From NCBI GenBank assembly GCA_003345595.1, contig PRDI01000087.1, positions 1-24,729 of the forward strand: a stretch of DNA of 24,729 nucleotides, in the 5' to 3' direction. Origin of the DNA: Candidatus Thorarchaeota archaeon. GTDB lineage: Archaea; Asgardarchaeota; Thorarchaeia; Thorarchaeales; Thorarchaeaceae. Shown here one piece after another: positions 797-4,739 of this stretch. The stretch's first letter is position 1; each line of letters opens with the position of its first letter. The notes beneath the pieces are model-generated. The model made no database searches, was not told where the DNA came from, and was given only the letters and a program-made list of their open reading frames with translations. The position numbers and the translations under genes were made by a program.

Positions 797-1990
797 GTGC
801 CTTTGACTGAGTTGGGAAGACCAGTAATGCCGTTCGCCGCTATTGTTGGAATGGAGAAGCTGAAACTGGCTCTTATGCTGAATGGAGTCAACCCGAAGAT
901 TGGGGGTGTGCTCATTTCAGGACCCAAAGGTACAGGCAAGACGACTGCGGTCAGGGCACTCGCAGATCTGCTGCCAAACGTGGAAGTCGTAGAAGACTGC
1001 CGTTTCGGCTGTGGCCCTTCAAGTGAGTTTCTGTGTCTCGAATGTGAGAAACGCCGCGAACAGGGCGAGGAGCTCAAGAGTCTGACAAGGAAGATGCGAG
1101 TAGTCAACCTCCCCTTGTCCACAACTGAAGACAGACTCATTGGTGCTCTCGATATTGAACGAGTTCTGAAAGACGGTATTCAGGCGCTAAAACCGGGCAT
1201 ACTTGCTGAGGCAAATCAGAACATACTCTATGTAGACGAGGTGAATCTCCTTCCTGATCATCTGGTTGATGATTTGCTCGATGCGGCAGCCACGAAAGTG
1301 AACGTGATCGAAAGGGAAGGGGTTTCAGTTTCGCATCCCTCTGATTTCGTCTTGGTTGGCACCATGAACCCCGAGGAGGGTGAACTGCGACCGCAACTCC
1401 TTGACAGGTTTCCTCTTCATGTTGAGGTTGGCGCTGGACTGTCTGTCGACCAGAGGATGGAACTCGTTAGAAGAAACCTTGCATTTGAGAAAAACCCCAC
1501 AGCATTCAGAGAGCAGTGGGCCGAGGACCAATCCCGACTGAGGGGGAAGATTGTCACTGCCAAGGAACTCCTGGAGCATGTCGTTCTCTCTGAGACTGGA
1601 CTCAGAGCGATTGCGATGGCGTGTGACGCGCTGGAGGTTGACGGCGTCAGGCCGGACATAATCATCAGCAAGACCGCAATCACCAATGCCGCCTTCGATG
1701 GACGAGAGGAGGTGTCCTTGGACGACCTGAAGCTCGCAGCACAGCTTGCCCTCAGCCATCGGACAAGGAGAGGAGGGCTGCTCGAACCTCCATCGTCAGA
1801 TGAAATCGACCGGGCTATTACAAGAGCTGTAGACGTCACAAGAAGAGAAGACAAGCGAGCATCTCCATCTGAAACACCTGAAGAGCCGGGGGAGAAATCA
1901 GAAAAGCGAGCCAAAGGAATGTTCGGTCGACAAGCAGGAATGGCTAAGGCCGGCAGCGACGATGTAAAAAAAAAGCTCCTCGGCACATAA
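797..1990 (+). CDS. chlI: ChlI/ChlD-type (Mg/Co chelatase family) AAA+ ATPase; probable N-terminal part of a frameshifted chlD-like gene. Start is GTG797 or ATG827
   Basis: PFAAIVG, Walker [29 protein letters not shown], Walker [28 protein letters not shown]; acidic/Pro-rich C-terminal linker like the ChlD linker. Confidence 0.9.
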
Positions 1991-2003
1991 TGAGGCCACG
2001 AGG
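1966..2003 (+). promoter_or_regulatory. Candidate -1 programmed frameshift/slippage signal: A9 run (A_AAA_AAA_AAG) plus downstream hairpin
   Basis: A1966-A1974 read as GTA AAA AAA AAG in frame 0. The -1 frame is open from 1948 (TAA at 1945-47) into ORF 1990..3468. CCTCG(1978-82)/CGAGG(1999-2003) stem begins 5 nt after A_AAA_AAA. Confidence 0.7.
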
Positions 2004-3468
2004 TAATCCATTCAAGGGCACCATCTGTGCAATCATGATGGTAGTAGTGACCACATATTCTGCCTGGGTGTTCTTCAGTCCCATCAACACTTATTTCGGG
2101 CAGCGACCAGGCGTGCTTCCATCTCTACCAGTCATCCTGGTTGACACATTTGTGTACGCGCCCATCATGTATCTGCTAGTTCGCAGATGGCTTAGGACTA
2201 TGATGAGAAGGAAGGGAGGTCTCGCGGCGGGAATTGACTTCGTCGAAACTGGAGACGCAAAGCCTGAACCAGGAGATCAGTGGGGGCGAGCGACACGACC
2301 GTACAGCCCTGTGACACCGTCTAGAATCACAGGATCAAAGTCAGACTTGCGCAGCACGCCTGAAGGACTAGGTATCGACTTCTTTTCGACAACACCCGAT
2401 TTCACGGCAGGTGAGGAGCTCTTCGACCCTTCAGAACTGAGCTCCAGAGTGACGAAACGAGCATCCGTTGCATCGGGAGGTAGGCTGCGCATGCGCGTGA
2501 GCTCACGAGCCATGGGTTCAATGAAGGCTTCTGAGAGTGCGCAAAGAGGTAGATTGTTACGTTCGAGAATACCGCGGGGTGAATGGTTCAGCCTTCACGT
2601 TCCGTCCACTCTTGTGGCAGCACTGCTCAGGAGAGGCAAGACCGGGGCAAGGCAGGGTCCTCTAATCCAGCGGGAAGACCTGAGGGAGAAGGTGTTCTCC
2701 GGAAGAGCCCCCCTAACAATCATCTTGGTCATTGATGTCAGCTTGTCCATGAAGGGCAGCATGGTCGAGGTTAGGAAGATAGTGAATAGGATAGAACAGG
2801 AAACACGGGGCTCCAGAGATCGGGCAGGGATAGTGGCTTTCAAAGACAGTGGCGCTGTCGAGGTCCAGGCTCCGACTTCAAACTGGAATAGAATCTATAG
2901 AGCGCTCGTTGCTCTTAGGATTTCAGGATTGACGCCATTAGCGCAGGCACTGATGAAGGCTCTAGATGCGATAAAGCGAGAGAGGATGAGGAATAGCAGC
3001 ATCGAGCCCCTGGTAGTGCTCATATCAGACTTCGCCCCGAACATACCTCTTGCCCGGTCATTGGATGGAAATGCGACCGTGTACTCTCCTGTAGAAGACA
3101 TGATCAGAGCTGCCAGGCTTCTTCGAAGAGAGAGAGTACGACTCGTCGCTGTCAACGTTGACACACAGGAATCAGCATGGTCAAGATTTCTCAAGAGGCC
3201 CTATCACGAGGCCGTGGAGCTGGCCGCAATGCTCCGGGCAAGAAAGGAGGGCTTGGCTGATCCTGTGGAAGCCGTCTTGGCGGTTCCAGAGTTCCGCAAG
3301 TCCTTTGGAGCATACCTTGTCGCCAGAATTGGTGGCGGAAAGGCATTCCTTTCGAGCGAACTCACTGCTAAGAAGTCAGTCTTGGGCACCTTTCTGAACG
3401 CGACCAGTAGCCAGACGCGACACAGACCTGAGGATTTGCGCAAGGCCGAGTCGTACATCGCACATTAG
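1990..3468 (+). CDS. ChlD C-terminal-like vWA (MIDAS) protein with two N-terminal transmembrane helices
   Basis: Two hydrophobic segments (about aa 10-30 and 46-65); ChlD-like pre-vWA motif RGRLLRSRIP..STLVAA..EDLREKV; MIDAS elements DVSLS, GLTPLAQAL, VVLISD; TAATG stop/start overlap with upstream ORF. Confidence 0.85.
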   Translation: MRPRGNPFKGTICAIMMVVVTTYSAWVFFSPINTYFGQRPGVLPSLPVILVDTFVYAPIMYLLVRRWLRTMMRRKGGLAAGIDFVETGDAKPEPGDQWGRATRPYSPVTPSRITGSKSDLRSTPEGLGIDFFSTTPDFTAGEELFDPSELSSRVTKRASVASGGRLRMRVSSRAMGSMKASESAQRGRLLRSRIPRGEWFSLHVPSTLVAALLRRGKTGARQGPLIQREDLREKVFSGRAPLTIILVIDVSLSMKGSMVEVRKIVNRIEQETRGSRDRAGIVAFKDSGAVEVQAPTSNWNRIYRALVALRISGLTPLAQALMKALDAIKRERMRNSSIEPLVVLISDFAPNIPLARSLDGNATVYSPVEDMIRAARLLRRERVRLVAVNVDTQESAWSRFLKRPYHEAVELAAMLRARKEGLADPVEAVLAVPEFRKSFGAYLVARIGGGKAFLSSELTAKKSVLGTFLNATSSQTRHRPEDLRKAESYIAH

Positions 3469-3540: not shown

Positions 3541-3647
3541 GGCGCACTCAGCCCGACATTCGCCTGGTGTCATAGTGAGTGAGGAGAGCCCAGTAGGGTT
3601 TTCGATGAATCCACTTTTCATGCATCATGGCACAGGGCTGGTGCGCC
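3541..3647 (+). ncRNA. Candidate structured RNA (5' leader or sRNA) with long closing stem; strand uncertain
   Basis: ggcgcac-t-cagccc (3541-54) pairs with gggctggtgcgcc (3635-47); inner gtgtcat/atggcac and further helices; TTTTATCA TATA-like box ~25 nt upstream. Confidence 0.45.
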
Positions 3648-3680
3648 CCTCGCAGAAGACCAATTAAGGAGTCGCTTGAG

Positions 3681-4739
3681 TTGCTACATGGTAAGCTCCC
3701 ACCAGACGTGCTAGAACGCTTGGTGTTCAATCACCTTGGCAAGATAGACCCGGACGTAGTACTCGGGCCCGGCACTGGCAGAGATGCCGCATTGTTGCGC
3801 GTTGGCAACATGGTCCTTGTAGCGTCCACCGATCCAATCACGGGCTCCATTGAGGACGTTGGTTGGCTCTCGGTACATGTGAACGCAAATGATGTTGCTG
3901 CCTTTGGGGTGGCTCCCAGATGGTTCTTCTTGTCGATCATGCTACCATCAGGCAATAAGGCGTCATCCATCGGACGGATAATGGAGCAGGTCGATGAAGC
4001 GGCAAAGTCTCTGAACGTATCCGTGGCAGGGGGACACACTGAGGTAACCCCGAGCATTGACAGACCAATCGTCGCGGGATTCATGTTGGGTCTCGCGAGA
4101 CAAGGCCAGTACGTAGTGCCGTCGGGTGCCCGACCAGGGGACTCAATTGTTCTTACCAAGACCATTGGCATTGAAGGCACTGCCATAATTGCTGCTGAAG
4201 GAGCACCGATGCTTGTGGAAAGAGTAGGAAGGAAGGTCATCAGCGAGGGTCGTAGTCTTCGCAGCCAGATTAGTGTGGTCAGAGAGGGACTGGCCGCATT
4301 CCAGAGTGGACACGTAACAGGCATGCATGACCCCACCGAGGGAGGAGTGGCAGGCGGAGTTCACGAACTCTGCGACTCAAGCGAGGTTGGTTGCGAAATA
4401 GATTCTGATACACTTCCAATCCACCCATCAACTGAAGCGTTGTGTCAAGAACTCGGCATTAACGTCCTGGAACTGATTAGCAGCGGTTGTATGTTAATCA
4501 CTTGTGACCCAGAGCACGCTAACGATGTGGTCAGCGCAGTTCAGTCTACGGGAGTCGCTGCCAGGGTCATTGGGACCCTCGTATCAGATCCAGCCCATCG
4601 CGTCCTTACCTCGCGTAAGGGTCTGAGAAGACTGCCTCGGCCAAAAACCGATGCGCTGTGGGGCGCACTCAGAAAGATAGAGGACGCACGAAATCACGCA
4701 AGAGGTCGATCAAGGCATCGCTCACGCCCTCCACAGTGA
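3681..4739 (+). CDS. AIR synthase-related (PurM/HypE/ThiL superfamily, PurM-like) protein
   Basis: GKLPP, GPGTGRDAA, STDPITG, HVNANDVA, GGHTEVT, MHDPTEGG motifs; start reassigned to TTG3681, preceded by AAGGAG. Confidence 0.85.
   Translation: MLHGKLPPDVLERLVFNHLGKIDPDVVLGPGTGRDAALLRVGNMVLVASTDPITGSIEDVGWLSVHVNANDVAAFGVAPRWFFLSIMLPSGNKASSIGRIMEQVDEAAKSLNVSVAGGHTEVTPSIDRPIVAGFMLGLARQGQYVVPSGARPGDSIVLTKTIGIEGTAIIAAEGAPMLVERVGRKVISEGRSLRSQISVVREGLAAFQSGHVTGMHDPTEGGVAGGVHELCDSSEVGCEIDSDTLPIHPSTEALCQELGINVLELISSGCMLITCDPEHANDVVSAVQSTGVAARVIGTLVSDPAHRVLTSRKGLRRLPRPKTDALWGALRKIEDARNHARGRSRHRSRPPQ

Follow-up and report, generated by a model that had tools for sequence, protein, structure and literature searches.

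One Thorarchaeota gene very probably encodes both a soluble ChlI-like ATPase and a membrane-anchored AAA+/vWA protein by slipping one base within nine consecutive A's

The stretch of Candidatus Thorarchaeota DNA analyzed in this study (24,729 nt; hereafter, the window) contains a ChlI-like N-terminal part and a vWA-bearing C-terminal part that are adjacent, in order, and separated by one frame change. As shown in Table 1, the two parts are encoded by overlapping ORFs. The first ORF encodes 397 residues from GTG 797 or 387 residues from ATG 827, the latter being the length called in near relatives, and its tail consists of three Lys codons, four further codons, and TAA. Re-reading of the sequence verified the end codons and the run of nine A's (A9) as quoted in the first-pass annotation, together with the -1 offset of the second ORF: a TAA closes the -1 frame upstream, the frame opens at 1948, and the two frames overlap by 43 nt. 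When one A is read twice, a fusion of 890 residues without a stop is obtained, which agrees with the size of about 890 residues given in that annotation (880 residues if translation is started at ATG 827).

Table 1. Features of the AAA+/vWA locus, with positions in the window
Feature	Position	Strand	Basis
Zero-frame ORF, ChlI-like AAA+ ATPase (putative short product)	797..1990	+	ChlI structure matches, E about 1e-96
Walker A of the AAA+ domain	920..943	+	Residues 42-49
Final -1-frame TAA, 5' limit of the shift window	1945..1947	+	Frame reading
A9 slippery run; in-phase A_AAA_AAA at 1966-1972 and A_AAA_AAG at 1969-1975	1966..1974	+	
-1-frame bridge of 15 codons plus, from the run to the first shared ATG	1975..2034	+	Protein-level conservation
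Hairpin of the first-pass annotation; weak, not conserved, probably incidental	1978..2003	+	
Zero-frame TAA, end of the putative short product	1988..1990	+	Position fixed in orthologs
-1-frame ORF: two TM helices, linker, ChlD-type pre-vWA segment, vWA, helical C-terminal extension	1990..3468	+	
Predicted TM helix 1	2017..2079	+	Hydropathy; AlphaFold helix 7-29, pLDDT 83-90
Predicted TM helix 2, with a basic, positive-inside stretch behind it	2122..2181	+	Hydropathy; AlphaFold helix 46-73, pLDDT about 90
vWA domain, MIDAS intact (DxSxS at 2734-2748, then T and D)	2719..3168	+	Pfam VWA/VWA_2; fold match

The best matches of the ATPase half are ChlI/BchI models and structures, and bpMoxR remains below its cut-off. 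The Walker A lysine, the Walker B DE, the arginine finger, the sensor II arginine, and four cysteines are conserved in 48/48 orthologs, as are the MIDAS residues D, S, S, and D of the vWA half, while the MIDAS T is found in 46/48. Among known structures, the vWA half matches 2x31_A (E = 3e-5), and the fold search confirms the vWA domain only. In a profile search, positions 2 to 350 of TIGR02442 align to the first ORF and positions 403 to 617 align to the second. The NCBIfam cut-offs were missed for TIGR02030 (395.6 versus 466.95) and for the two halves of TIGR02442 (460 and 109.8 versus 779.45). Basic residues are located on both sides of the predicted TM hairpin, which suggests that the AAA and vWA domains are both cytoplasmic. 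A scan of the window for promoters and terminators, which is ill-suited to archaea, gave results at chance level.

The gene is present in 69 of the 85 family genomes and in 15 of the 16 genera, and Thorarchaeota orthologs with 55 to 61% identity were found. We compared 74 distinct junctions from 15 genera, taken from family genomes and metagenome loci; related loci are non-independent samples, and the junction counts are not p-values. The conservation of the run and of the -1 offset in orthologs, which the first-pass annotation had proposed as a check, was borne out: the run is A9 in 55 junctions, A10 in 13, and A11 in 4, i.e., A9 to A11 in 72/74, with L005 (A8) and L021 (broken run) as the exceptions, and the offset is -1 in 66 junctions, in frame in 6, and +1 in 2. 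L067 has an N gap in its sequence and an offset of -1, and in L111 a single G is missing ahead of the run. The run occupies three codon registers, and an in-phase A_AAA_AAA is still found in 66/66 of the -1 loci. In the 2.73-Mb genome, the A9 of the window is the sole A/T run of at least 9, where 10.6 would be expected from the base composition. Among the Lys codons, AAA is in the minority (24% genome-wide, 41% in these genes), and 15 of 1463 Lys-Lys pairs are AAA-AAA. In the coding sequence of genome G000, every codon phase shows a 1.5- to 20-fold depletion of runs of at least 6 of any base, with A/T affected most; being equal across the phases, this avoidance is no argument for the ribosome.

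When 48 full genes were aligned by codon, synonymous change was suppressed in a single window among 888, namely the junction (0.42; mean, 1.00; SD, 0.07), a signal whose Lys part arises partly by construction, as the alignment is anchored on the run, and whose stop-codon part does not. Among the 66 -1 loci, 60 share the position of the zero-frame stop (50 TAA and 10 TGA). In several orthologs the last -1-frame stop extends into the run and includes its first two A's, which would confine a shift to the run itself. The bridge that follows has a column identity of 0.86, against 0.84 in the AAA domain; read in the zero frame, these bases reach 0.49. Its synonymous sites are free past the zero-frame stop. 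It contains no ATG, GTG, or TTG in 51/66 loci; since the bridge codons are conserved as protein and mostly lack a start codon, they must be reached via a frame change.

Several loci deviate from the common pattern. L015 has an A9 plus a second in-phase A7 immediately before the stop, and in L021, from the same genus, the second site alone is present at the junction (about 1460 to 1500), i.e., the long run is broken by a synonymous AAG and the in-phase A7 directly before the stop is retained (a single assembly and a single-member cluster); this pattern looks like site replacement. Bin G030 contains two contigs (L007 and L050) that are 93.6% identical, one with A9 (split) and the other with A10 (in frame). 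The in-frame Thorarchaeota forms occupy four places on a quick tree, which is unrooted with an open backbone, excludes the CobN-linked paralogs, and is used here without drawing an order of events; these forms look like recent one-base gains or miscalls. Genome G000 also carries a second pair (L002, contig C129), in which a distantly related 338-residue AAA ORF is accompanied by a TM-bearing one; as the frame of the latter opens past the first stop, no overlap is available for a frameshift.

The hairpin downstream of the run, which had been proposed as the stimulator of the shift, can form but is weak (-7.5 kcal/mol; z = -0.69; 43 of 200 shuffles fold equally well), and its five pairs are complete in just 3/74 junctions, all of them from the species group of the window. 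A search for a 3' stimulatory structure over the 74 junctions gave mean z-scores of 0.0 (40 nt) and -0.3 (60 nt), with 2/74 below -2, and consensus folding of the aligned 3' sequences gives an empty structure. A conserved 3' stimulator is ruled out by these per-locus z-scores, the empty consensus fold, and the free synonymous sites. Shine-Dalgarno (SD)-like pairing 5' of the run appears to be enriched (76% versus 29% below -5 kcal/mol), which is due to the encoded amino acids: the observed energy is -6.24, and -6.19 is expected from these residues. The enrichment is thus fully accounted for, and a selected 5' SD stimulator was rejected.

The TAATG stop/start described in the first-pass annotation is present at this locus, but an ATG overlapping the zero-frame stop occurs in just 3/66 -1 loci, and no SD precedes it in a genome that otherwise uses such motifs; ATG 1990 of the downstream ORF is confined to the species group of the window. 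Nearly all loci have an ATG at codon 16 or 17, which sits within TM helix 1, and SD pairing at this ATG is below -5 kcal/mol in 0/66 loci. Conserved reinitiation, whether at the stop or at ATG 16/17, was rejected. The third, reinitiated TM-vWA product that had been suggested is possible in the species group of the window at most.

In other Asgard lineages, the corresponding gene takes several forms. Families f12, f8, and f10 and one Baldrarchaeia paralog have a single ORF of 833 to 900 residues with the same TM hairpin between AAA and vWA, and since such in-frame AAA-2TM-vWA orthologs exist, the predicted fusion corresponds to a natural architecture. Together with the comparative data, these orthologs strongly support the earlier proposal that the AAA+ and vWA ORFs are joined by a programmed -1 event that gives two products, one short and one long, as in frameshifted chlD genes. 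Twelve soluble homologs from Njordarchaeia, Baldrarchaeia, and families f6 and f33 (L043, L045, L137, L139 to L141, L143 to L146, L162, and L186) are split at a +1 offset, and an in-phase UUU_UUU_CGN is present in 12/12. This motif is known in influenza PA-X and has been proposed for HF1-like haloviruses (PMC5009743, PMC7230728). Family f21 has -1 splits at A10 to A11 in two linker positions. Seven in-frame genes retain the site (four with UUU_UUU_CGU and three with A10 to A11) and have a stop 2 to 15 codons into the shifted frame (L039, L142, L183, and L185; L147, L148, and L171, in the linkers); slippage in these genes would produce the short form, in the manner of E. coli dnaX. What the lineages share is selection for two products, for which the signal is exchangeable.

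Further sites were observed in related genes. L149, an in-frame gene, no longer has the CG that follows the U run elsewhere. Among the 14 in-frame genes of family f12 (L036, L037, L151, L152, and L188 to L197), 10 have an in-phase A_AAA_AAR about 27 codons past the AAA lid motif with a nearby -1 stop, which may yield a short form, and four are without it. A further paralog, L198 from family f9, has an A10 run 85 codons past the AAA lid on a truncated contig. Family f21 has a second system (L176 to L182 and L201), in which a stand-alone ChlI-like gene (frames of 343 to 353 codons) and separate vWA frames of about 960 to 1050 codons are found.

The large subunit ChlH/CobN (PF02514) was found in none of the 86 family genomes searched, including the 23 near-complete genomes, with positive controls; hemB and hemC were not found in the five genomes tested, four of which are 97 to 99% complete. 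In Asgard genomes that have CobN (G041 and G043), CobN is located near a different, soluble paralog of 660 to 685 residues. The ChlI-type gene gives one match per genome in 71 of the 72 family genomes with a match (at E 1e-40), and the exception carries two copies of the same gene; the short product would thus be the only small subunit. Because the large subunit was not found in any of the 86 genomes, the products are probably not chelatase subunits, and the protein would probably act as a membrane-tethered AAA+/vWA remodeller instead.

The conserved neighbors are threonine-synthase-like, HAD, and Snf7 genes upstream and AIR-synthase-like and surE genes downstream, which look like housekeeping genes. 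The Snf7 (ESCRT-III) gene is found three to four genes ahead of the AAA gene in 7/8 Thorarchaeota loci (L206 to L212 included), a proximity that may be plain synteny. The AIR-synthase-like (AIRS/AIRS_C) gene, at 3627 to 4739 of the window, is directly next in 9/9 Thorarchaeota loci and a few genes away in family f12, and a functional link to the AAA/vWA gene is possible.

The closest known system is the fs-chlD or "magnesium chelatase" recoding cluster described by Antonov et al. in 2013 (PMC3711429) and Kuznetsov et al. in 2022 (PMC9227772) and, according to the latter, also treated by Antonov in 2020 (doi 10.1093/molbev/msaa081). In both systems, a ChlI-like AAA+ ORF overlaps a -1-frame vWA ORF at a poly-A site with A_AAA_AAR, the A-rich slippery site in the overlap is under purifying selection, a short and a long product are described or predicted, and there is no separate chlI. 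The "stage 1" fs-chlD genomes (Spirochaeta thermophila and Brevefilum fermentans) are without the large subunit and the pathways (PMC9227772) and resemble Thorarchaeota, in whose genomes no large subunit was found. On the other hand, the host here is an Asgard archaeon, a group not mentioned in PMC9227772; two TM helices are predicted right behind the shift site; and the long form has 880 to 890 residues, above the 500- to 800-residue class of the Chelatase DB, owing to the TM hairpin and extensions. Downstream structure, which is usual though not universal in fs-chlD, is not conserved here, and sister Asgard lineages use the +1 UUU_UUU_CGN or carry the site in frame.

The AAA+ motifs and the vWA domain with MIDAS are shared with the Mg-chelatase ChlI/ChlD and Co-chelatase motors (PDB 6l8d, 8osf, 1g8p, and 2x31). 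These chelatases differ in that ChlH/CobN and hemB/hemC were not found here (86 and 5 genomes, respectively) and in that a membrane anchor is predicted. In MoxR/vWA motors (NorQ-NorD, CbbQ-CbbO, and RavA-ViaA), an AAA+ ring acts on a client with a vWA/MIDAS adaptor. NorD vWA chains are among the fold matches, whereas the ATPase here is of the ChlI type, the adaptor and the ATPase would come from one recoded gene, and a TM anchor is predicted. The dnaX gene (tau/gamma) also has an A-run site and supplies an AAA+ ring from short and long products of one gene, although it encodes a clamp loader and not a ChlI/vWA motor. E. coli dnaX has SD and hairpin stimulators, both of which are absent here. 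The site is a ribosomal A_AAA_AAG in E. coli dnaX, while in Thermus thermophilus the polymerase slips on A9 (PMC3711429). The only archaeal -1 case reported in a 2021 review is Saccharolobus solfataricus fucA1 (PMC8211752), which is likewise an archaeal chromosomal gene with two overlapping ORFs and a -1 site but encodes a glycosidase and is not a lineage-wide two-subunit arrangement.

Judging from the sequence data, one Thorarchaeota gene very probably gives a short soluble ATPase and a long membrane-anchored form via a one-base slip, and we regard it as highly probable that two products arise by a slip of either the ribosome or the RNA polymerase. The best explanation, which we favor with moderate confidence, is a ribosomal -1 slip combined with a co-assembled remodeller. 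Most ribosomes would stay in the zero frame and reach the stop four codons beyond the run, which would yield the soluble ChlI-like AAA+ subunit, while a set fraction would move one base back as tRNA-Lys decodes consecutive AAA codons and continue to the AAA-2TM-vWA protein of 880 to 890 residues; the run itself would be the signal, with neither a conserved hairpin nor a selected SD. The in-phase A_AAA_AAA in every -1 locus, the in-phase A7 retained in L021 despite its broken run (in a single assembly), and the codon-phased +1 UUU_UUU_CGN of the Asgard relatives argue for the ribosome, as do published reporter assays in E. coli, where shifting in chelatase cassettes reached 10% with 7 A's, 40% with 9, and 63% with 11 (PMC3711429). 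The lack of a selected 5' SD and of a 3' stimulator, which in the canonical cassette lies 5 to 9 nt downstream, argues against it, since classical -1 sites usually have such elements, as does the sharp floor of nine A's, which recalls the A9 of Thermus dnaX (PMC3711429), and the six in-frame and two +1-offset junctions also count against this explanation. If, instead, RNA polymerase slipped on the A9 template and added one A in a fraction of the transcripts, the long protein would be read in frame. Such slippage needs no stimulator, and none was found; it would tolerate the in-frame and offset variants, and it is consistent with runs of at least 9 in 72/74 junctions in any register, with the separate family f21 sites, which are all A10 to A11, and with the published signature of runs of 8 to 9 or more (PMC3711429). 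However, the longest run in L021 is 7, the related +1 site has just six U's and is strictly codon-phased, and the chlD signals in the literature are termed translational (PMC9227772), and we consider polymerase slippage possible but rather unlikely.

A switch at the DNA level, in which replication slippage toggles cells between A9 (short form only) and A10 (long form only), would fit the six in-frame junctions in four places of the tree, the bin with both A9 and A10 contigs, and a long product that is a membrane protein. The short-only state would then prevail 66 to 6, yet the vWA half is intact and conserved in nearly all loci; moreover, the in-frame proteins are single among split members of their 90% clusters (1/11 and 1/4), and the +1 UUU_CGN relatives are not simple repeats, which makes such phase variation improbable. 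It is very improbable that the locus comprises two translationally coupled genes for an AAA+ and a TM-vWA protein, with the A-run as a mere Lys-rich tail: 51/66 loci have no start before codon 16, the nearly universal ATG at codon 16 or 17, itself a point in favor of coupling, lies inside TM helix 1 without SD pairing below the threshold in any of the 66 loci, the codons ahead of the first ATG are conserved as protein, and the Lys codons shun the favored AAG, even though TAATG overlaps at this locus, GTG overlaps TGA in 10 loci, and overlapping stop-start pairs are frequent in this genome. Homopolymers are error-prone and a few orthologs are in frame, as would be expected from an assembly error in a continuous gene. 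This alternative, which the first-pass annotation had raised, is contradicted by the -1 offset, which recurs in 66 junctions of many independent assemblies and in near relatives, and both this error and a pseudogene are at odds with the fixed stop and the two intact halves. Near relatives that are 87 to 92% identical also have A9 and the split in independent assemblies, and none of the 14 members (451 to 492 residues) of the 90% cluster of the second ORF is fused, which makes an assembly error very unlikely; overall, the probability that we assign to an error or a pseudogene is negligible. DNA-level switching, coupled genes, and artefact jointly take a small share of the probability.

Under the ribosomal slip that we favor, the short and long forms would probably co-assemble through their identical AAA domains, with few vWA-bearing anchored subunits per ring. 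Such a ring would hold its client through the MIDAS, and ATP would drive the remodelling, with no chelatase large subunit involved. By analogy with the motors described above, the best reading is a mixed AAA+ ring in which a minority of anchored vWA subunits would allow a client to be remodelled at the membrane. More broadly, and only tentatively, the genes may represent an old Asgard AAA+/vWA machine, membrane-tethered or, in some lineages, soluble, with a non-tetrapyrrole client, whose short-to-long ratio would be set by re-invented and flipped recoding; in Thorarchaeia, stimulator-free sliding of the ribosome on Lys codons would act as a soluble-to-membrane switch. This wider reading covers the -1 poly-A sites of Thorarchaeia and family f21, the +1 UUU_UUU_CGN sites of Njordarchaeia, Baldrarchaeia, and two more families, and the in-frame genes that have kept a site.

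The recoding principle of chlD genes is already published, and what is unusual here is the anchor, the missing chelatase partner, and the differing slip signals among Asgard lineages. A search of titles and abstracts, with the dataset of Antonov 2020 outside its scope, found no paper on frameshifted chlD in Asgard or Thorarchaeota. In database annotation the locus is given as two genes, and the starts chosen remove the first TM helix. The finding bears on a question left open in PMC9227772, i.e., the role of ChlI/ChlD-like proteins without a large chelatase subunit, to which the membrane anchor adds a clue. Given its conservation throughout an Asgard family, the putatively recoded gene is well suited to tests of how the Asgard ribosome or RNA polymerase behaves on poly-A, and the broken run, the in-frame forms, and the +1 relatives are natural controls at hand.
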